Below, in pieces: positions 22,927 through 64,000 of a DNA stretch of 64,000 nt. The stretch spans positions 2,080,001 to 2,144,000 of the forward strand of contig CM000151.3 in the NCBI GenBank assembly GCA_000004695.1, written 5' to 3'. The notes beneath the pieces were generated by a model, which was given only the letters and a program-made list of their open reading frames with translations, made no database searches and had not been told where the DNA came from. How positions within the stretch are numbered: position 1 is the stretch's first letter; each line of letters opens with the position of its first letter. This DNA is from Dictyostelium discoideum. Its lineage: Eukaryota. A program made the translations under genes and the position numbers.

Positions 22927-23929
22927 TATTATGTATTTATATATATATTATATTATTGGAAAAAAAGAAAAAAAAAAAAAAAATTTGGAGTTGATGTGTG
23001 TGTGAGAAATGAAAATTTTAATAAAAAAAAAAAAAAAAAAAAAAAATTAATTTAAAAAAATAAAAAAAAAAAAATTGATTGTGAAGTGCAAAACTTTTTT
23101 TTTTTTTAATTTTTTTAATTTATTTTTTTTTTTTTTTAATTTTTTTTATTTTTTTTTTTTTTTTATTAAAACGGAAAAAATTGAAAAATAAAAAAAAAAT
23201 AATAATAAACAAGATAATATTATTATTATTTCATTATTTATTTATAACTCTTAATTAAATATTTTTCGTTTTTTTATTTATAGTTTTATTAAATTTTAAA
23301 AAAACAAAATAAAAAAAAAAAAAAAAAAAGAAATAAAAAATAATAAAATTTTATTAAAAAAAAAATGAAATAATGAAAAATTATATCACAAAGTAATTAT
23401 TTATTTTGGAAAAAATATCAGGTCAATTTTTTTTATTTTTATTTTTATTTTTATTTTTTTTTTATTTTTTTATTTTTTTATTTTTTTTTTTTTTGATTAG
23501 ATTTACCACCACTCTAATTGATATTCCATTTAAAATAATTTGATAATTTCACTAATCTTTTTTAAATGTTTTTAAAAGATATTATTCAAATGTGTTTAAA
23601 AAAAAAAAATTATTCTCCAATCACACCATTTTCAAAAACACCAATCAGTGGTTTTTCAAAAAAAAAACAAAAAAATTAAATATTTCTATAACATCAAATT
23701 AAAAAATAATAATAATAAAAATTTTAAAAATATAAAAAAAATAATAATAATAATAGTAATACACTTGTAATAATAAAAAAAAAAAAAAAAAAAAAAATTA
23801 TTCTATCTATCTATTTATTAAAAAATAATTAAATTTTATTGTTTATAAACAAGAAATAATTTATGTTGAAAAAATAAAATTTATTCAAAATTTTATTTTC
23901 TTTGTGTATTTTTCAGATCTATTTAAGAT

Positions 23930-24345
23930 CTAAAAATCTAAGGAAAAAGGTTTATTAGCTTGTTGACTTAGAAATATTCTAATAATGATTTCTACGTTAT
24001 CTTTAATCCAAGTACCCTGGGATTCAGGAATATCAAATTCTTTTCCGTTGAATTCAATTTTACCTGATTTTATATGAAATTCCTTTTTGTCCCAAAGCTT
24101 ACCTTCAATTTTGTATTCGGTAAAACTCATAAAATATGGTGTTGGAAGAATACGGGGGGTTGGTGCTGGATGAGCTATATTTTTAAAAAAAGGAAGAGGA
24201 AATTAATGAAATGAAATGTAAGATTTTTAAATTTATATAAATAAAAATTAAATATTTAGAAATTAATAATTTCAATTAATTTACCTTTACCACTTATTGT
24301 TGATTCCCCATCTTCATTAATTAATGTAATTTTCAATTCAGCCAT
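23930..24345 (-). CDS. Small conserved hypothetical protein of about 101 aa, copy 1 of a tandem triplet. Exons 24285..24345 and 23930..24174; intron 24175..24284.
   Basis: [20 protein letters not shown] | [87 protein letters not shown] donor and ATATAG acceptor, phase 1. Confidence 0.75.
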
Positions 24346-25533
24346 TTTAAAATATATTTATTTATTTATTTAAAGTTATAATTTATATTATTTTTTAAAA
24401 AAAAAAGAGAATGTTATTAAATGAAGAAAAAAAAAAAAAAAAAAAAAAACAAAAAGAAAAAGAAAATTAAAAAAATTAATGGTTTTTTCACCCCAATTAT
24501 TATTATAATTTACATATCTCTCTTATATCTCTCTATTAAAAAAAAAAAAAAAAAAATTAAAATTATTTAAAATTGGCAAACTACAAAATCAATTCATCTT
24601 CACTCACCACCAAAACAGTTTTTTTTTTTTTTATCAATTTTTTGAAATTTTTTATTATTTTAATATAAGCTTAAATTAAAAGGTTTTATTATTTACAATT
24701 GTTACTAATTTAATCATGAGTTGGGCAGAGAATGTAATTGCAATAAAACACACATGCAGTTTTTAAAACCTAATTTTAATTTTAATAAATTAGAGTGTTG
24801 GTCTTCTTTTTATGTTCAAAGAACACCAAAAAGTATAAATATTGAATTTCTAATATATTTTTATTAAAATATAATAATTACTAAAAAAATGAGATAATAT
24901 ATAAGAAGGTTATAAATTTTATTAATTATGGTTTTAATAATAAGATGTTTAAAAAATAATAAAATAAATTATAAATTGGAAAAGAATAAATATTGCGAAA
25001 ATTTAAAAAGTATAAATATTGCGAAAAATTTAATAGAATATATTGAAAAAGTTTATGTTTTAAAGGGATTAAAAAACAATGTGGAATTTTCAATATATTT
25101 TTGGTGGAAATTATTTTGATTCTTATATATTTAAATCTTTTTTTTTTATTATTCATATTTTATAAAAAATAACACCCAAATACATTTGCATCATATATGT
25201 TTCTAATTTCTAAATCTGACAGTTCTTCAATTGAATTTTTTATTTTTTATTCTTTATTTTGGGTAAAATAAATTGCTTTATTTTAACATCCAATCAAATT
25301 TCTTTTAAAAAAATAATAAAAAAAAATATCAAAATTAAAATTATTATAAAATGTCCAACTACAATAAATCATCTCAACTCACCACCAAAACAGTTTTTTT
25401 TTTTTTTTTTTTTTTTTGTATCATCCACCATGCATTTATTTTTTAATGGTTTTATTTTTTTTTAATATTTTTAAATAATCAGCTGATAATGAATTAAAAC
25501 CAATAAATAAATAGTCTCTCCAATTAATTTATT

Positions 25534-25566
<33 letters not shown>

Positions 25567-25701
25567 TTTGAGACAAAATTTAAAAATTTTAATCTAAATA
25601 AATAAATTTATAAAATTTTATTCTATATTATATTTATGATGAAAATAAGATTAATGCAAATTTTTTATTTCTTTGTTTTTCATTGTATCTGTTTTTGAGA
25701 T

Positions 25702-26114
25702 CTAAAAATTTTTTTGGAAAATTTTTTTTGGTGGTACAATTAGATGTAAACTAACTTTGATGTGGTTTTCTTCATCATCTTTACTCCATGTGCCTTTAGA
25801 TTCAGTAATATCATATTCTTCTCCGCCGAATTCAATTTTACCTGATTTTATTTGAAAATCATTTTTGTCCCAAAGTTTACCTTCAGTTTTATATTGGATA
25901 AAACAGAAACAATATATTGGAGGAAATATTAGGGGAGCTGGTAATGGATGACCTATATTTTATAAAAAATCCAGAATAAAATGAAATGATATGTTAGATT
26001 TTTAAATATATATAAATAAAATTAAATATTTAGAAATTAATTATTCCAATTACCTTTACCACTTATTGTTGATTCCCCATCTTCATTAACTAATGTAATT
26101 TTCAAATCAGTCAT
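25702..26114 (-). CDS. Copy 2 of the small hypothetical protein family. Exons 26054..26114 and 25702..25952.
   Basis: [20 protein letters not shown] | [83 protein letters not shown]. Same GTAATT/ATATAG junctions as copy 1. Confidence 0.7.
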
Positions 26115-27191
26115 TTTAAAATTTATTATTATTATTATTTATTTATTTTTAAGAGTAATTATATTTAAATTGAATGTTGAAAAAAAATTTTATTAAATAA
26201 TTAAAAAAAAATAAAAAAAAGAAAAAAAAAAATAAAAAAAAAAAAATAAAAAAATTGTTTTTTTTAATAATAAATTATTGTAATTTATATCTCACTTGTA
26301 TCCCCATTAAAAAAAAATAATAAATAAAATAAAATAAAATGACAATCATCTTCACCCCTCCCACAATCAAAACAGTTTTTTTTTTTTTTTTATAAACAGT
26401 TTAAATTAGAGGTTTTATTATTATTTAAAAAAAGTTTATTCTATGTCAATTATTAAACTGATAACAATAATTTGTGATATGGTAATTTGGTGAGTGTTGT
26501 TGATGCTGTAATATATTATTAAAAGATTGAAAATCTTGATTTTTACCAATCATTGAATTTGATTTTCTAAAATTTGCTAAAATCTGACTAGCAAAAAAAA
26601 AAAAAAAAATAATAGAAAAAAAAAAAAATAATTAAAAAAAAAAAATTTGGCGCAAATTTTAAAGTAAATTGTTATTTAATCTTAAAACAATCAAATAACT
26701 GTTTATAAATAGTTTTTTTTATTGTTTTGGTTAAATTAATTGTTTTTAATTTAAAAAAAAAAAAAAAAAAATTTAGTGTGAAAACTCACTACAACAAATC
26801 TGCAAAATTAAAATCAAATAAAACAAATTATAAATAAAACTTTTTGTGGAAAGAATGTAATTGCAATAACTGAATGTTTGGTATAACTATATGATGAATA
26901 ATATTCTCCCATTTCAGAGGAAATGTAAATTATTAAACCTAATATGATGTTGAATTTCTTAATTTCAAAACTCCAAATACATTTGCATCATATATGTTTC
27001 TTATTTATTTAAATGTCAGATAAATTTATCTTATGTTTCCTCAATTGAACAAACAAAACCAAAACCACCTAATACATTTACATCATATATGTTTCTTATT
27101 TATTTAAATGTCAGATAATTAAATTTTAAAAACATAGAAATTATATATGATGAAAAAATAAGATTAATGAAATTTTTTATTTCTTTGTTTT

Positions 27192-27628
27192 CATTGTATC
27201 AGATCTGTTTTAAGATCTTTAATTTTTTGGGAAAAATTTTTCTGGTGGTCTAAATAGATGTAAATTAACATCGATTGCGTTTTCCTCATCATCTTTACTC
27301 CATGTGCCTTTAGATTCAGGAATATCATATTCTTCTCCGTCGAATTCAATTTTACCTGATTTTATTTGAAATTCATTTTTGTCCCAAAGTTTACCTTCAG
27401 TTTGGTATTGGGTAAAACGGAAAATATATATTGGAGGAAATATTAAGGGAGCTGGTAATGGATGACCTATATTTTTAAAAAGAGCCAGAATGAAATGAAA
27501 TGATATGTTAGATTTTTAAATATATATAAATAAAATTAAATATTTAGAAATTAATTATTCCAATTACCTTTACCGCTTATTGTTGATTCCCCATCTTCAT
27601 TAACTAATGTAATTTTCAAATCAACCAT
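27192..27628 (-). pseudogene. Copy 3 of the small protein family, disrupted by a +1 frameshift in exon 2. Exon 1 is 27568..27628; exon 2 starts at 27467.
   Basis: Exon 1 reads [20 protein letters not shown] and is intact. Relative to copy 2, exon 2 has one extra nt in an (AT)n run (ccaatatatattttcccg versus ccaatatattgtttctg). In the frame set by the splice junction this gives [23 protein letters not shown]. The rest ([41 protein letters not shown]...) is conserved but in the +1 frame. Confidence 0.55.
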
Positions 27629-28056
27629 TTTAAAATTTATTATTATTATTTATTTATTTTTAAGAGTAATTATATTTAAATTGAATGAGGAAAAAAAATT
27701 TTATTAAATAATTAAAAAAAAAAAATAAAAAGAAAAAAATAAAAAATAAAAAAAAAAGAAAAAAAAAATTAATTGTTTTATTTTAATAATAAATTATTGT
27801 AATTTATATCTCACTTGTATCCCCATTAAAAAAAAAAATAATAAATAAAACAAAATAAAATGACAATCATCTTCACCCCTCCCCCACAATCAAAACAGTT
27901 TTTTTTTTTTTATCATTCCACCATTTTTTTATAAACAGTTTAAATTAAAGGTTTTATTATTATTTATAAAAAGGTTTATTCTATGTCAAAATGGTGTAAT
28001 GATAAAAAAAAAAAACTGTATTTCCCAAATTAATTTTTTTTTTTTTTTTTTTTTTG

Positions 28057-28072
28057 AATTGGCGCCCAAATT
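28057..28072. promoter_or_regulatory. E2F-like palindromic element AATTGGCGCCCAAATT, about 95 bp upstream of the CTF18 ATG.
   Basis: TTGGCGC core (E2F consensus TTTSGCGC). It is very improbable by chance in about 80% AT DNA, and the same core recurs upstream of MCM6. Confidence 0.45.
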
Positions 28073-28162
28073 AAAAAATAAAGTCTTTTTTTTTTTTTTT
28101 TTTTTTTTTTATTCAACTTTATTTTTTCAAATGTTGTAATAGATACAACAAATAATAAAAAC

Positions 28163-28309
28163 ATGTTAGGTACAAAAAGAAACTTAAGTGATACAAATGA
28201 TATAATTAATGATGAGAATGTAGATAATAATAGTAATGATAATAGCAATAAAAGATTCAAAACAAATTCGATCTCATTTGAAAAGAAATCGAATCCACCA
28301 TCATTATCG

Positions 28310-28353
<44 letters not shown>

Positions 28354-28886
28354 AACATCAACAATACCATTAGGATCACAAAAGCGTATAAATATTACAT
28401 CATTTTCAGGTCACAGAATTACTAGAGTAGTAAAATCTCAAAATAGTGAGAATATTTCAACCTCTTTATCAAAATCAAATATATTATTTAACGATTTATT
28501 AAAGAAACCAATTAATGAAATTTTAGAAGAGATAGAGAATATTGTAAAATATTTTTATTAATATATTTATATTTATATATTATAGTAATAATAATAATTA
28601 TAATAATTATAATACTAATATTTTATTTCTCAGGAATCATTAAAATTAAAATCAGAATTAATTAAAAATTCAAATTCATTAACGCCAACCAAATCAAAAG
28701 GAGTTAGTGAAGAGATAGTAAAGAATAAAGACAATAGATTATGGGTAGATAAATATGCACCAACATCATTTCATGATTTACTTAGTGATACAACTATGAA
28801 TTTAGAAGTACTAAATTGGTTAGAATTATGGGATCATATTGTATTTGATAAACCGTTATCAAAAAATTTAATAATGCCTTCAACTT

Positions 28887-28959
<73 letters not shown>

Positions 28960-29430
28960 TAGTAGTAGTACAGGTGGTGGATATTTTAATAAATTTAATA
29001 GTAAATTTACAACAAGTAGTAATAGTAATCAACAACATCAAAACCAAGGTCAATATTTATTACAAGAGGATGGAACACCAATTGCAAAGATTATACTTTT
29101 AACAGGTGGACCAGGTTTAGGTAAAACCACATTAGCACATGTACTCGCTAAACAAGCCAATTATAATCCAGTGGAAATCAATGCAAGTGAAGATAGATCA
29201 GGTGAAGCATTTGAAAGTAAATTATTATCAGCAATTGAAATGAAATCATTATTCAATGATAATAAACCAAATTGTTTAATTATTGATGAAATTGATGGTA
29301 TTTCAGGTCGTGATAATGGTCCAATTGAATTATTAATTAAATTAATTGATAATAGTTTAAAATTAGGTAATCATAAAAAGTCAACTACAAACCCAGCCGC
29401 TAAAAAATCAGCTGGAAAAGATACAGAATC

Positions 29431-29470
<40 letters not shown>

Positions 29471-31066
29471 CATGAAGACCAAGATGAAGATGATGAAAAA
29501 TCAACAAAAACCAAAGGTAAAAAAGGTAAAAAGAAAGGATTTACAACAAGATTACTTAGACCAATCATTTGTATTTGTAATGATCAATATGTACCATCAT
29601 TAAGAAAACTTAGACAAAAAGCAATGGTATTTGATTTTCAAGCACCAAAGAAAAATGATTTATTATCAAGATTAAAGGTAATTTGTTCAAACGAAGGATT
29701 ATCAGCAACTGATGCAACTTTGAATGCATTAATCGATATGACAGGTAGTGATATTCGTGCGTGTATCAACTCTTTACAATTTATTAAATCAAAAACTACT
29801 GTATTAAATTCAGAATTATTAAAGAATAAATCAAATATTGTAATTGGTCAAAAAGATATGGAAAAAGGTTTAGTTGAAATTTGGAATAATATTTTTAAAA
29901 GTTCAAGTATTACAAGTTCAACTAATAAATTATCAAAATATTCAAATACTATATCATCATCGTCATCATCAATTGATTCTATTAATAGTATTAGTAATGA
30001 TTATTTAAATCAATTAGATTTTCAAATTGGTGCATGTAATCAAGTTGATAAATTAATTGATGGTGTTTATGAAAATTATTTAACAAATATGTCAAGTGAT
30101 TATACAATGCAGAAAACAATGGATTGTTTGGATTGGATGGTATTTGGTGATCAAATGTTAAATGTTCATGCTGATGAAAAGTATCGTTCTCTAGTTCCAT
30201 TGGCAATTCATCAACGTTGTTCAACTTATTCACCAAAGATACAATTACCTCATTCCGATTATGATAATTTCATTAAAAAGAAATCAAACTCAAATATTAA
30301 AGATTCCTTTTACTCAGATTTACCAGCCACAATCTATTCTTATCTTACAAAGAAATGCTTTGTCATTGATTTCATTTACCCATTTGTTGATATACTTTCC
30401 TTACCAGTACGTGTTACAAATGTTCAATTGTATAGCCAAACAGAGAAAACCAATTTAAATCGTTTGGTTGAAATTATGAAATTCTATAGATTATCTTATA
30501 AGTTGGAAAAAGTAAATAATTTTATCAAACAACAACATCAACCACAAAAAAAATTAGTTGATAGTCTGGATGAAAAAGATGATGAAGAATTACAACGTAA
30601 TAAAAAACAACAAAATCAACAAACTCAAGATATAACAATGCAATATAAATTGGAACCACCTATTGATACTTTATTATATTTTCAAAATCAAAATCCAAAA
30701 ACTATGGTAAAACATATTCGATTATCTCATAGTCAAAAACAAATTATTTCTACAGCTGTACAACAATATAAACCACCTCAAAAATCAACTACTACCACCG
30801 CCACCGACACCACCACTACTGTTAAAAATGATGAAAATCAAAAACAAAAAGATCAATTGAAAAAACCAATACCAACAAAAGAAGAATTCAAAAAACCTTT
30901 GGTACCAACAGTTTTAAAAGATTTCTTTGGTAGAGTCATTCAAACATCACCAGAAACTAAAAAGAAAACTATGGAAGCAACAGCTGGTCCAAATATTAAA
31001 TATAGATTCCAAGAAGGTTTTACAAATGCTGTTAAGAAAACAGTGTATGTAAAAGATTTCTTGTAA
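28163..31066 (+). CDS. ctf18: Chromosome transmission fidelity protein 18 (CTF18), an RFC-like AAA+ ATPase of the alternative clamp loader. Exons 28163..28543 and 28634..31066; intron 28544..28633.
   Basis: ...DNRLWVDKYAPTSFHDLLSDTTMNLEVLNWLELWDHIVF (Ctf18 signature) ...IILLTGGPGLGKTTLAHVLAKQANYNPVEINASEDRS (Walker A) ...CLIIDEIDGI (Walker B). GTAAAA donor after ...EEIENI and TTTCTCAG acceptor, in frame with ORF 28796..31066. Confidence 0.85.
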
Positions 31067-31122
31067 AAGATATAAAAATAAAATAAAAATTAAATTATTA
31101 ACTAAATAAATATTAATTATAA

Positions 31123-31163
<41 letters not shown>

Positions 31164-31170
31164 AATTTAT

Positions 31171-33956
31171 TTATTTATCAAATGAATAATTTGGATGTAT
31201 AATTAATATTCTATGATCAGGATATTGATTTGGTACTAATACAACAAGAGAATTGTCTTTGTTTATCATTTTATTGATAACCATTTTAGTGATTTTAGTT
31301 TCTTTTGTAACTTCATCATCAGTGATTATGCCAGACTCCAATTGATCTTTAATGTACCAATCGATAAGATCAATTTGTTTTATACCAGATTTCTCTTTTC
31401 CTGATTGTTTAATTTGTAAAACTAATAATTTTGATAATTGTGAATATTTTGAAAAATTCATAGTTAATTTGCCAATACCATCATCACCATCTTCTTCAGC
31501 ATGGTTATCGTTATCATTTTCAACATTTTTGACTAAATCATCATCATCATCACCTAAAATTACATCATTTGTTTCAACATGAACTATTGATTTCTCTAAT
31601 AATCTTGCAGCTTCATTTACATATTTTGGTAAAACTTTTGTATCTAAATGTAAACGAGCCAATGATTCCGATAAACGAACTAATGATTCCAATTGTCTAA
31701 CTGTGATTCTGTATGCTGGAGTTTTTGAACCACTGGTATCCATTTGACGTAATCTATCGTAATGTCCCACCAATAGTTGTACACTTTCATCTGGAATGGT
31801 TGGACAAATGAATTTTGTATACTTTATATAGTTTTTAATTTCAGTTGCAGAGAATGGTGCGTTGAATGCTTTTTCACGTTTTTGATGAGTCAACACGATA
31901 TGCTCTGCTATTCTATGATCAGATTCTGGATTACATTCATCCAATACCACAAAGAATAAATCGAAACGTGACATTAGTGGACCACCAATATTTAAATTTT
32001 GTTTTAAAGTTTTATTACGATCATAACGACCACCAATTGGATTTGCTGCTGCTAAAATACTAGTACGAGCATTCAATGATGCATGAATACCCGCCTTTGC
32101 AATGGAAATGGTTTGTTGTTCCATTGCTTCATGAATTGCAACTTGGTCACCTGGCTCCATTTTATCAAATTCATCAATACAACAAATACCATTATCTGCC
32201 AACATCAATGCACCTGCTTCAATATTAAAATCACCACTTTCTTGATCCTTTACAACTGTTGCCGTTAAACCTGCTGCACTACTTGCTTTACCAGATGTAT
32301 AAACTGTACGTGGTAAAAATGATACTAAATACTTTAAAAATGTACTCTTTGATGTTGATGGATCACCAACAATACAAACATTAATATCACCTCTTAATCT
32401 AATCTTTTCTGGTGTTTTCTTATGTACACCACCAAATAACATTAATAATACTCCTCTTTTAACTAAAATAAATAAATTAATAAATTAATAATTTTTTAAA
32501 TAAATATCTATATAAATTATTATTATAAATTATTATTATTATACTTTACTTTCTTCATGACCAAAAATTGAAGGACAAATTGAATTTACTAAATTTTGAT
32601 AAATTTTTTTACTTTTAATCATTTTCTTTAAACTATCTTTTTCTTTTTTTGGTAAAGAATCTAAAAAGGATTCTTTTGATTCAGGTTCTAAATCTTCATC
32701 AATGATACCAACTGAATGAGAATGACCACCATGATTATCACCAGATTCTTTACGATTGATTGAGGAAAGTGTTGAAACATTTGAACGAACACTTTGAGAG
32801 AAGAAACAAACTCTATAATTCATTTCTCTAACACCTAAATCTTTTAAACCACCAACACCACCAAAATCATCCTTACCATTTGCATTTGAACCTTCCTTTG
32901 TGCTCGATGCTACACCCTTGATAATTTGAGCATTATTACCAATGGACATTTTAGAAACATCTGGAATTACATTCATCGTACCAACAAATGTACATGTATC
33001 ACCAGCTCTAGCGGTTTCAACCGAATCACCACGTAGAATGATCTCTAATGATCTTGGTACGCTACCACCTGGAATTTCGGAATTGTTTTCTTGAACTCTA
33101 ACTTTTTGCCAATCAGTGAATGTCGACTCCTCTAAATTTATCTTCCAACGACGTTGATTTGAACATAACGGATTCAAACATTTGGTTGGTTCTGTATATT
33201 TAAATTGTTGGGCTATTGGTAACGATGAGGTATTACAATCCTTACAAATGAATGACCCAATAACCAACTCTGGTCTAACCTCTGACGTTCTCGTTACTGT
33301 ACCCGATATAGAACATAATGATCCTATCCTACTTGATCTAAGTTCTCTAATATGTACAAACGTTGAAACATTATAACAACAAATTGATAATACTATCCTT
33401 TCTTTATTAACTCTCTCCATAAATGATGGAAAATATTTTTGTATAAAAATTGATAATCCTTGTCTTATCGCTGGTTCTAATCTAATATTTATATAATTTT
33501 ATAATTAATTTAAATTCAACCAATTTTTTTTTTTTTTTTTTTTTTTCCTTTTTTTTTTTTTTTTTTTAAATCATACCTAAAATATTCCATTAATAATGCT
33601 TTTCCTAAACCTTTATCAAATTTCTCTAAATGTAAGAAATCTATATATAAACTTGATTTATCATTTTTTATCATTCTTTCAACTTGTTGACGATAATAAC
33701 TTTTATCTATTTTCTCTTTTTTAATACCATTTTCGTCATATTCATTTTCATTTTCATTATTATCTTCATTATCTTCATTATTATTATTATTATTATTTTT
33801 ATCAATTTTTTTTTTTAATTTAAAATTATTTAAAAATTCTAAAAATTTATTTTTTGTCCATTCTTTTGCTTCATCTTGTACCTTTTGAAATTGATGTGTT
33901 TGATTTGGTCTTATTGTTGCTTTATCTTCATCAACTCCAGCATCTGTATATATCAT
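31171..33956 (-). CDS. mcm6: DNA replication licensing factor MCM6. Exons 33577..33956, 32550..33481 and 31171..32462; introns 33482..33576 and 32463..32549.
   Basis: The N-terminus is ...FQKVQDEAKEWTKNKFLEFL...LLMEYF. It continues RLEPAIRQGLSIF..., the zinc finger CKDC...CLNPLC, ...IFGHEE | IKRGVLLMLFGGVHKK, Walker A GDPSTSKS, IDEFDKM, and an arginine finger SRFDLFF. The C-terminus VLPKYVNEAARLLEKSIVHVE...HPNYSFDK matches MCM6-specific tails. Donors GTATGA and GTAAAG, phases consistent. Confidence 0.9.
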
Positions 33957-34073
33957 CTTTTAATTTATTTATTATTATTTGTAAACAAAAATCTAATGCT
34001 CAAAAAATGAAAAAAAAAAAAAAGTTTGAAAAAGAAAAAATAAAAAAAAATAAAAAATAAAAAATAAAAAAAA

Positions 34074-34084
34074 AAATTGGCGCA
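34074..34084. promoter_or_regulatory. E2F-like element AATTGGCGCAC, about 120 bp upstream of the MCM6 ATG (minus-strand gene).
   Basis: TTGGCGC core at 34077..34083, followed by a second CG-containing stretch TTTCGACGC. It sits in otherwise A-only sequence. Confidence 0.45.
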
Positions 34085-34191
34085 CTTTTTCGACGCTATT
34101 TTCTTAGAAAAGTGTTAATCTAAATTTTAAACGATAATGATAAACTAATAAACTAATAAATTGGATTTTTTTTTTTTATATACAAGAATAA

Positions 34192-43897: not shown

Positions 43898-46411
43898 TTA
43901 CTCTAAATTTTTAATTAAATTATAAATTAAACCAGATTGTAAAATTGATTTGCAAGTATTTTCTTTTGCAGTTTTTTTATTTTGACCAGATTTAAAATGA
44001 GAATGTGCAGCTTCTTTATTTATATAGAAAGTAGCAATAGCATTAAAAAAACCAGAACCATCAGGAGTATGTTCCCAAGCTATACCAAAATCAAATGTAT
44101 GTCTTTTAACTTGAATAACCATCTCTTGAACCAAAGCACTAGCAGAAGCAAAATAGGAATTTGTATCCATTTCTTCATCAACTTGATTAACTTGAGTTGT
44201 ATAGTTTTGTTGTTTTAAAGATATTGGAAGTTCACCAGTTTTTAAGAAATTAATAGCCTCTTCTAAATATCTTTCTTGATTTTTAAAGAACTCATAGATG
44301 TTATCCTCTCTTGGATCATCAACTTTGACAATACCATAGAAATAACTATCCCTATTTCTTAATCTACCCCTTGATTGAATATTAGCAGTAACGGTTGTTG
44401 GTGGATCTAATCTAATTACAATATTACATTCTGGTACATCGAATCCTTCTTCCACTACACTAGTTGCAACTATAACATTACATTGATCACTTCTAAACTC
44501 TTCTATAGCCTTCTTTTGAGATGATATTGACATTCCACCAATAGAACCATGACCAACTACTAAATTTGGTTTAATAAAAGAGAATCTATCACCCATTCTT
44601 AATTGATCCAAAAGTGAATAAACTTTCTTTGCTACGTCTCTTGTTTTTACAAATATGATTGCTTTTAAATCATCACTCTTTTTTTCATCCAAAATTTGTA
44701 ACGCAATCTCTAACTTTGAAATACTATCCGCAATCTCTTCATCACAAGGTAACGAATGAACCATTGCTAAAATCTCTGATTGAAGTTCTACATCATCAAT
44801 ATTTGAAATCTCTTCAATTAAAAAGGATTTTAAATTTAAACCAACTGGAATTGCACTACCAAACATTTTAAAATTAATAAAATCATTAATTTTTTCAAAA
44901 AATGATGATAAAAACTTATTTAAATTATGATTTTGAGTACTACTATTGGAACCACCACCACCACCACCAACACCTAAACCTTTTAAAGTATTACTATCAA
45001 TTACTGAAGTAACAGAATCAAATAATTCTTGATTATTACTAAGATTTGGTTTATATTTTGAAATTAAATCTTTTAAGATTTGAATTGAGTGACGTTCTAA
45101 ATTATTTGTTGGAATTGGTATGATTTTAATATTCTTTTGATTAATATATGGAATGATTGATTGATTAGTTGGTTTTATAATTTCACAACGACTAACTTTT
45201 GAAATTAATTTCAAGGATAATAAAGTATTGAAAAAATCTTTTTTACCAGCTGGTGACGCAGTTAAACCTAAAATCTTTGGATGACAAATCTCTGGAATCG
45301 TATTTAATTTATCACGTAATAATTTAGCGAATGAATGCTCTTTAACTATATGATGAGCTTCATCGATAACAATCAAACAGAAACTAAGTATATTTAAATC
45401 ACCATTTGATAAAAGTTTATTGAATAAATCACCAATCACCACCAAAACATCAAATCTTTGCTTCAATTGAACTGGTTTAAATGTTTCACCGTGAGCTGAT
45501 AACACCTTTAACCCCGTCTCTGTCTCTATTACGTCTGATTGTTGGATTACCAATGGGATTCTATCTACAATGAAAACTATTTGCTTTGAAGGATTCAATT
45601 GCTTCATTTTCTTTATCACCAAACATGATATTAAAGTCTTACCTAAACCAGTTGGTAAACAACATATTATATCCTTTTCCATTGATTTTCTATAGAGTTC
45701 ACATTGATAATCTCTTGGTTTACTCTTATTCATCTCCATTGGTTTACCATCATCACCCTGTTGTAATGTTTTTATAATTGGCATACCAATTGTTTTAATT
45801 TGACCGAGTGTAAGATTATTACAATTTTCATCTTGAAAAATGCTATTCATAGTATCAACTCTTTGTTGTAAATCACCAAGTGTTCTCTTTAATCTTTCAA
45901 TTTCATTATCCTTTTCCATTTGAGTTGGTTCATTAAAATGTAAATAACTAAAACCACCACTTAATAAATTTCCATCATTTTTTTGTTTTTCAATTAATTC
46001 ATCTTTAATTTTATTTTTATCTATACTAATAAATTTTGAAAATAATGAATCTATTGATTGTTTTGTTTGATATGTTAATTGTTGTGGTTGTTGTGGTGGT
46101 GGTGATTCTATTTCTTGTTCTTGTTGTTGTCTAGTTTTTTTTTGTTCTTGATATTTATTATTTAAATCTTCTCTTCCCTGTTGATTTAAATAATTTAAAA
46201 CTTTTATTGCGCAACATGATTCTGCTGTTTTTTTATTTTTATACCAATCGGAATATACAATTTTATTGTTATGTTTTGAATTAATTTCACCAACGCGTAT
46301 GTGTGTACGATATTCTCTCTCGTGGTCAGGTCCTCTACACTCTGAATGGTATACTGGTAAATATCCTATTCTTTTTTGTTGAATATAAGTTTGTAAATCA
46401 TTTTTAGTCAT
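43898..46411 (-). CDS. DExH-box (Dicer/RIG-I-type) RNA helicase flanked by N- and C-terminal dsRNA-binding domains, HelF-like. Single exon.
   Basis: The N-terminal dsRBD reads LQTYIQQKRIGYLPVYHSE..GPDHEREYRTHIRVGE...AESCCAIKVLNYL. Helicase motifs: CCLPTGLGKTLIS (I), VIDEAHH (II), GLTASP (III), ATSVVEEGFDVPECN, QSRGR (VI). The C-terminal dsRBD reads FGIAWEHTPDGSGFFNAIATFYINKEAAHSHFKSGQNKKTAKENTCKSIL. Confidence 0.75.
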   Translation of the reverse strand: MTKNDLQTYIQQKRIGYLPVYHSECRGPDHEREYRTHIRVGEINSKHNNKIVYSDWYKNKKTAESCCAIKVLNYLNQQGREDLNNKYQEQKKTRQQQEQEIESPPPQQPQQLTYQTKQSIDSLFSKFISIDKNKIKDELIEKQKNDGNLLSGGFSYLHFNEPTQMEKDNEIERLKRTLGDLQQRVDTMNSIFQDENCNNLTLGQIKTIGMPIIKTLQQGDDGKPMEMNKSKPRDYQCELYRKSMEKDIICCLPTGLGKTLISCLVIKKMKQLNPSKQIVFIVDRIPLVIQQSDVIETETGLKVLSAHGETFKPVQLKQRFDVLVVIGDLFNKLLSNGDLNILSFCLIVIDEAHHIVKEHSFAKLLRDKLNTIPEICHPKILGLTASPAGKKDFFNTLLSLKLISKVSRCEIIKPTNQSIIPYINQKNIKIIPIPTNNLERHSIQILKDLISKYKPNLSNNQELFDSVTSVIDSNTLKGLGVGGGGGGSNSSTQNHNLNKFLSSFFEKINDFINFKMFGSAIPVGLNLKSFLIEEISNIDDVELQSEILAMVHSLPCDEEIADSISKLEIALQILDEKKSDDLKAIIFVKTRDVAKKVYSLLDQLRMGDRFSFIKPNLVVGHGSIGGMSISSQKKAIEEFRSDQCNVIVATSVVEEGFDVPECNIVIRLDPPTTVTANIQSRGRLRNRDSYFYGIVKVDDPREDNIYEFFKNQERYLEEAINFLKTGELPISLKQQNYTTQVNQVDEEMDTNSYFASASALVQEMVIQVKRHTFDFGIAWEHTPDGSGFFNAIATFYINKEAAHSHFKSGQNKKTAKENTCKSILQSGLIYNLIKNLE

Positions 46412-57820: not shown

Positions 57821-60800
57821 ATGGCAACTACCAATGTAGTTGCAAGTTTATTGAACAATGGTGTTCATGGTGCAGGTAAATATTTAAATATTGGGCATTA
57901 AAAAATAAAAAATAAAAAATAAAAAATAAATTTCAAGATCGGAATCTAATTATTGTTTTTTTTTATTAATTTTATTCCAAATAATTTCAAAAACAAATGA
58001 ATTATTAATGATTTTATTATAATAATAATTTTCAAAAAGATGGTCCAAATGGTCTTCATGGTGGTAGTGGAGGATATGGTGGTGGACGTGGTGGTGATGT
58101 AAGTTTTTTTTTTTTTCTCCAAACCATTAATAAAAGATTTTAAAATTATAAATATGTATACTAAATTATATTTTTATTTTTTTTATTTTTTTTTTTTTTT
58201 AAAAAAAAATAAAGGGATCTAGAGGTGCAGATGGTAATCATGGTACACCATCAGGTAGTATTGAAGTTTTTTTGGCAACAGATGGAATTAAAAATATTTT
58301 AGTAGATTATACATTAGGACCAACACCAATTCATCATGAAATTAGAAAAGGAGTTGAACCATTGGAATTAGGTAATCCTCAAACACATCTCTATTTATCA
58401 TCTAGAGGAGGAGATGGTGGTTGCGGTGGTCGTGGTGGTGATGGTGGTAGTGGTGGTCCTGGTAGCGCAGGTATGAATGCCACAAGACATAGTTCAGGTA
58501 CAAATGGTGGACCTGGTGGTAATGGTGGTAGTGGTGGTAATGGTGGTAGTGGTGGATCGTCAGGTAATGGTAATGATATTACAATTAGGAATAATCAAGA
58601 AGATATGGATTTGTTAATGATTTTAAAACAAGGAGTTAGTGATACAGGTCCAGGTATACCTGGAAAGGGTGGTGATAAAGGTCATGGTGGTAGAGGTGGA
58701 CCAGGAGGACCAGGTGGTAACTCTTATAGTTGGAGTGAAAGTTATCAAGTTTCAGATGGTAGAGGTGGTACAACAACTCAATATAGACATCATACAAATC
58801 CAGGTGGTATTAGTAAGTTTAAATTTAAATTCTAACATTAAAAAAGGAAAAAAAAAAAAAAAAAAAAATACTAACGAAAAAAAAAAAAAAAAAAAATAGG
58901 TGGTCCAAGTGGACATAGTGGTAGTAATGGTATTGGTAAGTTTAAATTTAAATTTTATTATTGAAAAAAAAGGAAAAAAAAAAAAAAAAAAATTACTAAT
59001 TTTAAAAAAAAAAAAAAAAAAATACTAGATGGTAATAATGGTATTTCAGGTATACCAGGAAAATATTCAATTTTATTAAATACTCATGAATATGGAGTTG
59101 TTAGATATGAAGCACCATATGATTTACATGTTGAAAAGATAAGATATATAGATACGATTGGATATAATATAATTGAACCAGATTCAGATGTTAGATTAAG
59201 TGTTGATCATTTAAATGTTGGTGGTATGCCAACACCATCACATCAAAATATTATGGCATATGTTGGTGATAATGGTTGGGTTGAATGTCCAATAGAGAAT
59301 AGGGTTGCAATGCAAAGATGGATAGTAGAGAAAACCAAATCAAGTTTACCAAAGGAAATTATATTTCATATTAAAGATTATCGTCATGATATTAGAGTGT
59401 TACCAAGAAATCCATTTATTCAAAGTTCTACAATGGATCATCAATGTTTAGTGGATCGTATCAATCAAAGCTTTGCAAGAGTATCAGCTACCAAATCACC
59501 ATTTACCATTGAATATCCAGTTCAGTCATCGATTATCAAAGGTTTAGACTGTGTCACAATGACAGATGAGGCACCATTTACCTATAGTATTTGGAATAAA
59601 TCATTACTATCGATTGGTGTTGAGTCGAATGAGTTTGATAAAAAATCACCAAATCGTGTTTTATTTACAACTCTTAAAATTAATTTAAATACACGTGGTG
59701 GTAATACATCAATTAACGCAACCGATATTATAGTGAGAGATGTTAATGGTAAAATATTCAATAATCCAGAGAATGGATTATATTCAACCATTGAATTAAT
59801 TAATCCACAACAATTGAAATTTGCATCGGCCACAATGACATTTGTAAATCCTGATATTAAACCATACACTCGTGTTTTGGTTGAGTCTTCACTTTATTTA
59901 GGTCATATTAAAGACATGATCAATTCACCACAACCAATCCAATCTAGACCATTTGAAATTCAATTATCAGAGGGTTACTTATCATCATTATTCAATTGTG
60001 ACATTTTATTAGTGGTTAACAACCAATCGGAATACGATGAAATCACTCAATGGAAGTTATTAGCCCATCAATTAGGTTTAACATTAAATGTTTGGAATTC
60101 TGGTTTATATCAAGGTTTTATGTTAAATCATAGAAAAGCAGATGGTCGTACACTTCTTCAAGATTTTAGATCAAAAACAATCATTTATCTAGATAATAAC
60201 TATGTAAAGGATGAATTGTTATATCCAGCCTCTGAGTATATTAGATCAAAAGAATTTTTAAATGCTGCCTATCATCATGGTATTCATGTTTTAATGGTTG
60301 GTAAAAATTTCTCAATCGAGAATGAAATCTTCCCAATTAATACATTTGAAAGAGCAACTTTGGTTTATTATAAACAACATAAACAATTATTATACGCTTT
60401 AAAACATAGAATTCCTTCTGGCACTGGTTGTGGTCAAATTATACCACCACATATGGCTGTTGATGATAATGGTGATCTATCATTAAATCTATTAGTTGAT
60501 AAAAAGAATGAATATTTCATTGTAATCTTTAGACAATTAACCCTACTTTCAATCTTTAAAAAATCAAATTCACTCTACCCAATTAAAACAATTCATTTAG
60601 ATAGTTTTAATTTAACTTGTTTAACTCAACCACATTCTGAAACTAATGAAATCATTACAATTAATTTAGAATTTCAACATTTAGGTTTTAAAATTAATTT
60701 TTCACCATCAAAAGATAAAAAACTTAAAGAAAATTCAATTTCAAAAATTCAACAATTTTTTGAAATTTTACAACAAATTAAAACTTTATCACCAATTAAT

Positions 60801-63410
60801 AATAATAATAATAATAATAATATAAATATAAATGAAAATAATAATAATAATAATTTAAATGGTTTAAATGTTTCAGGTGGTGGTGAAAGAAAAAGTGTTG
60901 GTCCAATTTCAACAATAATTGAAGATGATAATGATATTTATGGTGGTTATTTGTATGTTAAATTTAAAGCAGAAGGATCATATAAAAAATATTATTTCAA
61001 TTTATTAACAAATGCAAAGGTATTACATCAACGTGAAGAAAAGAGTAAAAAAAAATCTAACAACAACAATGTTGCAATTAAAATATTAAATTTAAAGAGA
61101 TTTTCATTGACAAGAGGTAATCAATTTGGTACAGAGAAACAACATCATTTACAAACTTTCCAATTGGTTACACCAGAGACAACTTGGTACTTTAGAACTA
61201 GTTCAAATGATGAATATCAAGAATGGTTAAGTAGATTATCACCAATGTCAATTGAATATAATCTAACCTATTCTGAGCCATCGTCGGTGGTTAAGGACCA
61301 AATCATTTTAAAGAAAGAGGATGCAAGAGGTATACATTTATCACCAAGAACTCCAATTTTAGAAGAGAAGCATATACCAATCATTCAAGTTGTTGATAGA
61401 TTTGTCATTGGAAAACCAAAGGAAAAAGATTTAATAAAGTATGCAGAGAAATTATCGGAAAAGTTAAATTCACGTTTCCCAAATCAAAGAAATATTGTTG
61501 TCTATGAATTTAAACCAAAACAAACTGACGGCTGGAAGAGAATGACACTTGGTAATGTTGAAGTACATAGATCACTAGATAAAATTCAACCACATTTTGC
61601 AAAACTTAATATTGAACAAGATGTTTATATTCATAGTCCAACAATGATTCAAACACCTTCAACCATTTATCATTTCTTTAAAGTTTTAGATTTTAGAGAG
61701 AAATTATCCCTATTGGATAGTTTAGCAGAAAATTTATATTCAAATGATGAAACTTTGAATTTACTCTCAAATATTTCATCTCAATCTAAATTAGGTTTAT
61801 TACTCTTATCAATTTGTTCAGATCTTGCTGAAGAACAACATTGGTTTAGAGATGGTTCAAATTGGAGAGATAAATTATCAATTGATAAAATTAAATTAAA
61901 TTTATTAAAATTAAATATTTTAAAGAATTTCCAATTCAATTCTTATAATAATAGTAATTCAACAAATGTTACAACTAGATTATCTTTACCAATTTCAGAT
62001 CTTTTAATTGAAATTGGTGCTCACTTAAAGATAATTCTTTCAAATTTCCCTAAAAACTTTGCTGATAAAATTTGTTTACGTCGTAGAGCTAATGATGTTA
62101 CTGATGCTTCAAATTCGCTTTGGAATGATATTGTCATGATTCATCTATTTGGTAAAGAATTAAAAGATGATAAACCTATTGGTAAATCTAATCCAAATGA
62201 ATCTCAACTTTTAAAATCAATTAAAGAAACTGAATTGAAAAAACAAAAAGAATGGCAAAATCATTTATTCACTCAACATGGTTCAACTGGTAGTTGGGGT
62301 TACAATTGTACAAAAGCTGATCCTTCAAAAAATAAAAAAGAGAAACGTTGGATTAAAGGCGCCCATGTTATTTTAGCTTATAGAAAACCACCCTTCACTT
62401 CTGTAACAAGTGTTATCGATTGTGAAATCCTTTTACCAACCATTATGTCAAAGCAATCATTCCTTTCAAACTATGTTCCTCCAGTTCAAGGTAGTGCAAT
62501 CGTTGAAGAAAGAACTATTTTCGGTAATAATCAAGAGGCTCGTCAACAATTTATAAATCGTATTGCAACTGAGAAACTAGGTTTCGATATTAATAATACT
62601 GATAGATCATCACATTTAACAGTTTTAGAAAATTATTCAACAATATTTAATAATAATAATCAATCATTAATTCCAGTTGTTCAATTAGAAAAACCAACTG
62701 ATTCAATGACTCAAATTTTACCAAATTCTTATTCTTCAACCGAACCTCTTTCCTCAACCCCTTCTGATAATATTATTAGTATAGATTTAACAAAGAATTT
62801 CCAATCACCTCCAACTACAACTGAAAAACAATTTATTATTGGTGATGATTCAAATGATAATAATAATCTAATTAATAATTCTTTTGAACCTTCAATGGTA
62901 ATTCCATTATCACATTCAAATAATCAACAACAACAACAACAACAACAAGGAGTTAGTGAACCATCTTCGCCTGTGATCATTGACGGAGCTTCAAAACATC
63001 AATATCAAAATGCTGAAAATAATATTATTAACAACGACACCACTACCACTACCACCATTACAGAAACGACTACATCAACAGTTAAAATTGAGAAATTAGA
63101 GAAAAAAGAAGATTTATCAAACACTTCATCATCATCAACACCATCATCATCAACACCATCATCATCAACAATTTCTTCACCATTATTACAACCAATCATT
63201 ACAGTAAACGAGCAAAATATTGAAATTTCTTTAACAACAGCAACTACAATAACACCAGTAATTGAAGAACCATCACCTTTAACAACACCTTCATCTTTAT
63301 CATTATCAATCTCTTCACCATTTTTACCTGAAGAAAATAATAATAATAATAACATCAGTAATAATACAACAAAAGAAGATGATTTAGTAATTGAAGAACA
63401 CCACAATTAA
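57821..63410 (+). CDS. Large protein of about 1700 aa with Gly-rich GGxGG repeats at the N-terminus, a central PH domain and a Ser/Thr-rich C-terminus. Five exons: 57821..57875, 58040..58098, 58215..58812, 58900..58935 and 59029..63410.
   Basis: MATTNVVASLLNNGVHGA | DGPNGLHGGSGGYGGGRGGD | GSRGADGNHGTPSGSIEVFLATDGIKN...GGDGGCGGRGGDGGSGGPGS...GNGGSGGNGGSGG...NPGGI | SGPSGHSGSNGI | GDGNNGISGIPGKYSILLNTHEYGVVRYEAPYDL..., then ORF 59226..63410. All donors are GTAAAT or GTAAGT, and acceptors are AAAAAG, ATAAAG, AAATAG and ATACTAG with consistent phases. The PH-like segment reads GGYLYVKFKAEGSYKKYYFNLLTNAKVLHQ...QTFQLVTPETTWYFRTSSNDEYQEWLSRL. Confidence 0.7.
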
Positions 63411-64000
63411 ATCTCCTTTTAATTTTTGTAAAAAATAAAAAGAAAAAGAAAAAGAAAAAGAAAAAGAAACAAAAAGAGTAACAAAAAAAAAACCTTTTAA
63501 ATAAACTATTAAAATTGAAAATGTGTAGAAATATTATTTATTAAATTTAAAATTCTTTTTTTTATTTTTAATATTATTAATTTAAAATCTATTTATTTTT
63601 AAAGTTTTTTGGAATAAATTGGTTAAAGGTATCTCCCTAACAAATAGGTAAAAAATTATTTCCATACAACGTAGACCCAACCAACTTAACAGTAGCAAAT
63701 TAAATATTTATATATCAAACTTTATCAAATAAATATATAATTGTTTATTTATTTTATCTGTTTATTAATTAGTAAATAATAAAAATTAAATAAATAAATA
63801 TATATATATATAACAAAATAAATTAAAATAAAATAAATAAAAATAAAAACAAATTTAAACAAATTAAAACAAAATTTTTTTTTTTTTATTTCAAAAAAGA
63901 AAAGATAAATTAATTTATGGACCATTTTTCTTAAAATTTGATAACTTGTAGACTCATACTATTTATAAAAGTGGGGTATGCGCCAACGAAAAAGAGTTAA

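Follow-up and report, generated by a model that had tools for sequence, protein, structure and literature searches.

Introduction

In animals and plants, the promoters of S-phase genes carry binding sites for the E2F/DP heterodimer with the consensus TTTSSCGC. Motifs determined by high-throughput systematic evolution of ligands by exponential enrichment (HT-SELEX) are approximately TTTGGCGCCAAA for E2F1–4 and TTTCCCGCCAAA for E2F7/8; mammalian MCM5/MCM6, DHFR, and CDC6 are well-known examples of E2F/DP-controlled S-phase promoters, and MCM6 is a classic E2F target in mammals. In eukaryotes generally, E2F/DP proteins are reported to read the GCGC core with an invariant RRXYD recognition helix (Medina et al. 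2016, PMC4862756). The social amoeba Dictyostelium has one retinoblastoma protein (Rb; gene rblA), one activator E2F (e2f, DDB_G0284129), and DP (tfdp2, DDB_G0276799) (PMC3386910), and RblA is already known as a repressor of nearly all Dictyostelium S-phase and mitotic genes. The genes derepressed in an rblA disruptant, with expression peaking in late G2, include mcm2–7, rfc1–5, pcna, dcc1, and ctf8 (Strasser et al. 2012, PMC3386910). No mapped E2F sites in Dictyostelium gene promoters were found in the searchable literature, and the sole promoter-level remark in that study concerns one Tdd-5 transposon, which “contains a consensus E2F element” (PMC3386910). Here, we analyzed a 64,000-nt stretch of the Dictyostelium discoideum genome (GCA_000004695.1, contig CM000151.3, positions 2,080,001–2,144,000 of the forward strand; hereafter “the window,” to which all coordinates refer), in which the GC-rich heptamer TTGGCGC lies upstream of the replication genes CTF18 and MCM6. 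The boxes at these two genes are real and conserved across social amoebae, and they are very probably E2F/DP binding sites, an ordinary and expected type of cell-cycle promoter element.

E2F-type elements upstream of CTF18 and MCM6

The window is 22% GC and contains coding repeats of the AAC/poly-N type; its proteins match best those of D. discoideum, Dictyostelium citrinum, and Dictyostelium firmibasis. TTGGCGC occurs in it four times, at positions 26647–26653 (+), 28059–28065 (+), 34077–34083 (+), and 63980–63986 (−), against an expectation of 0.21 in dinucleotide-preserving shuffles, and none of the 100 shuffles reached four copies; the preliminary description was therefore right in regarding the heptamer as more frequent here than chance would give. 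A scan with the degenerate motif TTSSCGC returned the identical four sites and no others. The tetramer GCGC is present only eight times in the 64 kb: four copies are in coding sequence (one in the gene of a putative Ras-like GTPase, recognized by eye through its GxxxxGKS stretch, one in a helicase gene, and two in a PH-domain gene), and the other four are all within TTGGCGC.

The CTF18 coding region (positions 28163–31066, plus strand) consists of two exons (28163–28543 and 28634–31066) separated by one intron and encodes a protein of 937 aa with an AAA domain, an RFC1-type lid, and an LWVDKYAP motif, whose best named homologues are annotated as “chromosome transmission fidelity protein 18 homolog.” The MCM6 coding region (positions 31171–33956, minus strand; exons 33956–33577, 33481–32550, and 32462–31171) encodes 867 aa with the MCM_N, MCM_OB, MCM, and MCM_lid domains and MCM6_C, the MCM6-specific C-terminal winged helix, and corresponds to mcm6 (DDB_G0272760). 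The two genes are convergent, and therefore their promoters, about 6 kb apart, are independent.

The CTF18 promoter element, TTGGCGCCCAA, is located at positions 28059–28069 (plus strand), 94–104 bp upstream of the ATG. It is a near-palindrome whose top strand has TTGGCGC and whose bottom strand has TTGGGCGC; in its full context it reads gaaTTGGCGCCCAAatt, with the GCGC core 101 bp from the ATG, and it fits the palindromic TTGGCGCC-AA form. The near-palindrome had been given as AATTGGCGCCCAAATT at 28057–28072, about 95 bp 5′ of the ATG; these coordinates are correct, and the heptamer itself measures 98–104 bp upstream. On its 3′ side, the element is followed by a TATA-like AAAAAATAAAG, a run of 25 T (positions 28086–28110, plus strand) between the element and the likely transcription start, and then ATTCAAC. 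The T-run with ATTCAAC corresponds to the usual core-promoter layout of Dictyostelium, from which we infer the position of the transcription start, and a T-run followed by CAA(A/C) is conserved in the alignment of the group-4 CTF18 promoters. The intergenic region that contains the element is divergent; CTF18 is 104 bp away from the element, and the Dicty_CAD gene on the opposite side is 431 bp away. In Dictyostelium firmibasis, a proteasome gene takes the place of the Dicty_CAD gene, yet the site is still found at −99 to −102 from CTF18. Closer to the gene, 14 bp before the CTF18 ATG, positions 28133–28149 form a perfect inverted repeat of 6 bp around a 5-nt loop (GTTGTA ATAGA TACAAC), which is the same in both D. 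discoideum strains and in Dictyostelium citrinum and differs in D. firmibasis; it could be a hairpin of the 5′ untranslated region or a palindromic protein-binding site.

The MCM6 promoter element occupies positions 34077–34083, 121–127 bp upstream of the ATG, and reads AAAAAGTGCGCCAATTTTT on the minus strand, that is, in the orientation of the gene (AAAAAGTGCGCCAATTTTTTTTTTT with context, the core being 127 bp from the ATG; TTGGCGCAC in a probe-length form). The string AATTGGCGCAC, previously placed about 120 bp upstream of MCM6, is indeed present at that distance; its true position, 34075–34085, differs by one from the one first reported. On the gene side of the element, there is about 85 bp of T-rich sequence. 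In all Dictyostelium genomes examined, MCM6 and its upstream neighbor are arranged in tandem, and the site can therefore serve MCM6 only. Near the box, there are two further sequence features: a TTCnnnGAA palindrome of the interferon-gamma-activated sequence (GAS)/STAT type (TTCTTAGAA, positions 34101–34109), which lies 18 bp distal to it and is kept in the second D. discoideum strain, and a second GC-rich word, TCGACGC (positions 34090–34096), which is not conserved.

Both elements match TTSSCGC, and both match the longer TTTSSCGC at seven of eight positions. Their cores are in the proximal promoters, at −101 (CTF18) and −127 (MCM6) from the ATG, and each is followed by a T-run.

Conservation of the elements among dictyostelids

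Using homologue searches and contig look-ups, we collected 13 orthologous promoters from nine other dictyostelid genomes: those of CTF18 from a second D. discoideum strain, D. citrinum, D. firmibasis, Polysphondylium violaceum, Tieghemostelium lacteum, and Cavenderia fasciculata, and those of MCM6 from the second D. discoideum strain, D. citrinum, D. firmibasis, Dictyostelium purpureum, P. violaceum, T. lacteum, and Heterostelium album. Exactly one E2F-type core was found within 450 bp upstream of the ATG in 15/15 promoters (10 genomes and 8 species, including the two promoters of the window), where the 13/13 outside the window include two CCCTCC variants that were admitted post hoc. In 12 of the 13 non-window promoters, the core was positioned between −57 and −173. 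The exception was MCM6 of D. citrinum, in which the box has been moved from about −130 to −386 by an expansion of approximately 280 bp of (AAT)n-like sequence (locus L001, 9700–9980).

For CTF18, the sites were TTGGCGCCCAAA in the window (−101), TTGGCGCCAAA in the second D. discoideum strain (−79), TTGCGCCAAAA in D. citrinum (−98), TTGGCGCCCAAA in D. firmibasis (−99), TGCCCGCCAAA in P. violaceum (−109), TTTTCCCGCC in T. lacteum (−57), and TTTTCCCTCCAAAA in C. fasciculata (−104). For MCM6, they were GTGCGCCAA in the window (−127) and in the second strain (also written GTGCGCCAATTTT; −142), GTGCGCCCAA in D. citrinum (also written GTGCGCCCAATTTT; −386), AGCGCTCAA in D. firmibasis (also written AGCGCTCAATTTT; −104), AGCGCCACAAAA in D. 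purpureum (also written AGCGCCACAAAATTT; −143), TTTTCCCTCCAAA in P. violaceum (−110), TTTCCCGCC in T. lacteum (also written TTTCCCGCCTTTT; −64), and TTTTGGCGGGA in H. album (−173).

Within group 4 (Dictyostelium), the form of the site is GCGCC(C)AA. In the alignments of this group, identity is concentrated in the GC core, which stands as an island between T-runs of varying length, and the AT-rich DNA around it diverges; all four group-4 CTF18 promoters share GCGCC without change, against a mean column identity of 66%. The more distant species have TTTCCCGCC in both T. lacteum promoters, CCCGCCAAA at P. violaceum CTF18, and TTTGGCGGG at H. album MCM6, which are textbook E2F sequences (TTTCCCGC, TTTGGCGG), and E2F is therefore favored over a factor that merely recognizes TTGGC.

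These data also bear on the possibility that rare GC-rich heptamers happen by chance to lie near two replication genes. Just two genes are concerned, and two more copies in the window have no obvious target, which would fit a coincidence. Nevertheless, the excess of four copies over 0.21 expected is accompanied by a position kept in 13 orthologous promoters and by the strong difference from control promoters described below. Chance is effectively refuted by the conservation data, and we assign it a negligible probability.

Other known element classes were compared with the boxes and rejected. In an NFI/CTF site (TTGGC N5 GCCAA), the half-sites are separated by a 5-nt spacer, whereas those of TTGGCGCCCAA overlap, and the distant orthologous sites (TTTCCCGCC) contain no TTGGC at all; NFI is, moreover, a metazoan family. 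For the paired cell cycle-dependent element and cell cycle genes homology region (CDE/CHR), no TTYGAA is present 4 nt downstream of either D. discoideum site, and an adjacent TTTGAA occurs only in the variants of P. violaceum MCM6 and C. fasciculata CTF18. As for the MluI cell cycle box (MCB; ACGCGT), the sole CGCG in the 64 kb is at position 46294, within the helicase coding region, and neither promoter contains ACGCGT.

The homologue searches returned no protein identical to MCM6, CTF18, or the PH-domain protein of the window. The nearest CTF18 labeled as D. discoideum shared 94% identity, and its promoter sequence was TTGGCGCCAAATC, compared with TTGGCGCCCAAATT in the window, indicating that the genome GCA_054859385.1, labeled D. 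discoideum, belongs to a strain noticeably divergent from that of the window.

Comparison with neighboring promoters

When the 300 bp upstream of each gene were compared, TTSSCGS was present in 9/13 of the non-window CTF18/MCM6 promoters and in 0/45 of the control genes, which were neighbors within the same CTF18/MCM6 loci, so that the comparison is local and not genome-wide (Fisher p = 6.7e-8, a value that overstates the evidence because close species share ancestry). The canonical sites that are effectively independent number four: those of T. lacteum CTF18 and MCM6, P. violaceum CTF18, and H. album MCM6. Across approximately 190 kb of dictyostelid DNA, non-coding TTSSCGS was found only at the CTF18/MCM6 promoters and in the two orphan copies of the window.

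The same comparison bears on whether the box could be a structural or core-promoter feature with no cell-cycle role, for example a GC island between poly(dA:dT) tracts that excludes nucleosomes or positions the start site. The box is always located between long A/T runs and near the presumed transcription start, as such a feature would be. However, a generic core-promoter feature is not expected to be confined to two replication genes or to keep an E2F-specific sequence across species, and none of the 45 control promoters has the box; we therefore regard this explanation as very improbable.

Relationship to the RblA regulon

In Table S2 of the RblA study, in which the RblA-repressed genes include 57 S-phase and 41 mitotic genes, mcm6 (DDB_G0272760) is up 3.72-fold in the rblA mutant during growth and 11.43-fold during development, with a peak in late G2 (PMC3386910). 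The comparison with the published RblA gene set was favorable for mcm6, which is repressed by RblA; ctf18 was not found by name, description, or neighboring gene IDs among the Table S2 entries listed. The entry named “ELG1” in that table is a different gene (DDB_G0281907), and the ctf18 partners dcc1 and ctf8 are both present in the table (PMC3386910). Our analysis suggests that ctf18 belongs to the RblA regulon alongside dcc1 and ctf8.

The proposal in the preliminary description that the elements of CTF18 and MCM6 are of the E2F type is thus supported by their proximal position, the phylogenetic footprint, the canonical forms in distant species, and the RblA data for mcm6. Several observations weigh against it, in addition to the absence of ctf18 from the listed entries and the shared ancestry of the close species. 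The third T of TTTSSCGC is absent at both target sites and at the copy near the window edge, and is present only at 26647. Three of the group-4 MCM6 sites are one base off the consensus (TTGGGCGC, TTGAGCGC, and GTGGCGC). At P. violaceum MCM6 and C. fasciculata CTF18, CCCTCC replaces CCCGCC and the CGC core is broken. Furthermore, no cell-cycle gene could be tied to the 26647 or the 63980 copy.

The deviant sites raise the question of whether another sequence-specific factor binds the box and controls these genes, for instance some GC-box protein or a complex of the LIN54/MuvB type that uses a CDE/CHR-like element. The orthologous sites CCCTCCAAA(A)TTT(T)GAAA of P. violaceum MCM6 and C. fasciculata CTF18, with their adjacent TTTGAA, and AGCGCTCAA of D. 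firmibasis would suit such a factor, and Dictyostelium has both lin9 and lin54 as RblA-regulated genes. On the other hand, textbook E2F sequences make up most of the sites, including every site in T. lacteum and H. album, a CHR at the canonical 4-nt spacing is missing from the D. discoideum sites, TTTGAA is frequent by chance in AT-rich DNA, and a MuvB/DREAM-type complex would itself read such a site through E2F/DP. Binding by another factor is therefore unlikely, although less so than a purely structural role.

The two deviant sites share a near-identical 20-mer, ATTTTCCCTCCAAA(A)TTT(T)GAAA, at −110 of P. violaceum MCM6 (L007, approximately 2880–2900) and −104 of C. fasciculata CTF18 (L011, approximately 2885–2905). 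It occupies the slot of the canonical E2F site elsewhere, with CGC changed to CTC and the CHR-like TTTGAA directly after.

With E2F/DP as the predicted binder, the two promoters could operate as follows. The E2F/DP heterodimer would bind positions 28059–28069 and 34077–34083, just upstream of the T-rich core promoters, and RblA recruited by E2F/DP would keep the two genes repressed in differentiating cells and, in the cell cycle, at times other than late G2. Upon inactivation of RblA in late G2, E2F/DP would activate CTF18 and MCM6, and the resulting burst would supply replication proteins for the S phase that comes directly after mitosis, with no G1. We consider this mechanism as a whole, with E2F/DP bound at both boxes, RblA tethered there, and relief in late G2, to be highly likely. 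In this mechanism, the boxes would be the sites that mediate the effect of RblA, and ctf18 would be co-regulated with mcm6.

Orphan copies of the heptamer and other features of the window

The two remaining copies of TTGGCGC are orphans. The first, correctly described earlier at 26646 and as intergenic, is TTTGGCGCAAA (positions 26647–26653), between Dicty_CAD copies 2 and 3, and it is the only copy in the window that has the complete TTTGGCGC consensus. It precedes a 35-codon minus-strand open reading frame (ORF; positions 26553–26446) by 94 bp and the ATG of Dicty_CAD copy 2 (26114) by 533 bp. On the minus strand, its layout resembles that of the MCM6 promoter, with GCGCCAA, T-runs, about 40 nt, and an ATG, which here opens the 35-codon ORF only; on the plus strand, there is TATAAATAG with a T-run at about 26703–26730. 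In the second D. discoideum strain, nothing corresponding to 26449–26800 was found by a filtered blastn search, a permissive blastn search with 26440–26800 gave low-complexity noise only, and no GGCGC was found at the orphan location in D. citrinum. The site is accordingly recent and lineage-specific. An origin of the 26647 and 28059 sites as paralogues from the Dicty_CAD tandem duplication was rejected: the repeat homology stops at 26448/27990, and the sites are out of register, being 1412 bp apart compared with a unit of approximately 1514 bp.

The Dicty_CAD array itself, which adjoins the CTF18 promoter, consists of three small minus-strand genes in tandem (positions 23900–27700; ATGs at 24345, 26114, and 27628) with a unit of about 1.5–1.8 kb. 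The second D. discoideum strain has two copies, inverted (L010, 6585–8600), D. citrinum has one (L001, 18596–20138), and D. firmibasis has none; the locus is a hotspot of copy-number change and inversion.

The second orphan copy, GCGCCAA on the top strand (the heptamer being on the minus strand), is at positions 63980–63986, 570 bp past the stop codon of the PH-domain gene and 20 bp from the window end; its presence near the right edge had been reported before, at coordinates that were three off. It is not conserved downstream of the D. citrinum orthologue of the PH-domain gene, where the downstream sequence differs. Positions 63977–64000 read ATG CGC CAA CGA AAA AGA GTT…, preceded by TATTTATAAAAG, and this frame is open to the window end, so that the copy may lie in codons 2–3 of a gene and not in a promoter. 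The PH-domain gene (positions 57821–63410; exons 57821–57875, 58040–58098, 58215–58812, 58900–58935, and 59029–63410) encodes 1709 aa with a glycine-rich N-terminal part (DUF7932), and it has orthologues across Dictyostelia as well as in Planoprotostelium.

Pfam scans of the other large ORFs in the window identified a TRAF/Sina RING protein, a PKD channel, a glutathione reductase-like protein, a proteasome alpha subunit, three Dicty_CAD proteins, an LSM protein, a dsRBD-helicase, a polyketide synthase, and the PH-domain protein. No further replication or cell-cycle gene was found in these scans, in line with the earlier view that CTF18 and MCM6, whose domains and homologues agree with their names, are the two replication genes of the window.

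Discussion

Although the element type and the upstream pathway were already known and a specialist would not be surprised by it, the instance described here is new and well footprinted. Its practical value lies in the defined sites, in ctf18 as a likely addition to the regulon, and in a motif for target prediction. The two conserved sites are short, mutable cis-elements with which to ask if RblA acts directly via E2F/DP. Furthermore, because the genome is extremely AT-rich, the motif is almost noise-free as a predictor, and a genome-wide scan could therefore tell direct from indirect RblA targets.

Additional readings can be proposed from the comparison of the sites. In group 4, the cis-element may have shifted from an ancestral asymmetric TTTCCCGCC/TTTGGCGGG to a short, fixed-orientation GCGCC(C)AA with a GGCGCC center. 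The CCCTCCAAA-TTTGAAA variant, shared by P. violaceum MCM6 and C. fasciculata CTF18, may function as a composite E2F/CHR-like element. Finally, a new E2F-driven promoter may have arisen with the strain-specific TTTGGCGC at 26647; such a promoter could give rise to an unannotated transcript or to an upstream start for a Dicty_CAD adhesion-family gene and, if so, would tie RblA/E2F to adhesion and cell fate. Taken jointly, the group-4 shift, the E2F/CHR-like variant, and the newborn promoter are a speculative and rather doubtful set of proposals.

Among the described systems, the Tdd-5 element has the organism and the presumed RblA pathway in common with the two boxes; however, no sequence, position, or conservation analysis of that element and no statement on the mcm6 or ctf18 promoter is given in that study (PMC3386910). 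The mammalian CDE/CHR elements of G2/M genes, which are read by DREAM/MuvB, differ from the D. discoideum boxes, which have no CHR (TTYGAA) at 4 nt and whose targets are replication genes and not mitotic ones. The fungal MCB and Swi4 cell cycle box (SCB) (ACGCGT and CACGAAA, bound by MBF/SBF) are functionally analogous G1/S elements that partially overlap with E2F sites (PMC4862756), but SBF/MBF are fungus-specific and ACGCGT is absent at CTF18 and MCM6.

The E2F/DP sites of animals and plants are also among the close counterparts. In contrast to these, the D. discoideum target sites have TT instead of TTT before the core, the predicted sites are embedded in intergenic DNA of approximately 85% AT, in which they are the sole GC-rich words, and expression peaks in late G2 and not at G1/S because Dictyostelium has no G1. 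The shared features are the GCGC/CGCC core with T/A flanks (TTTSSCGC; TTTGGCGCCAAA, TTTCCCGCCAAA), the near-palindrome (at CTF18), the start-proximal position, and replication factors as targets. The pathway is likewise composed of Rb, E2F, and DP, with a single RblA, E2F, and DP in Dictyostelium, and mcm6 is derepressed upon the loss of Rb. For eukaryotes generally the finding is confirmatory, and, as far as the DNA site is concerned, it would extend the ancestral link between E2F and MCM genes to Amoebozoa.

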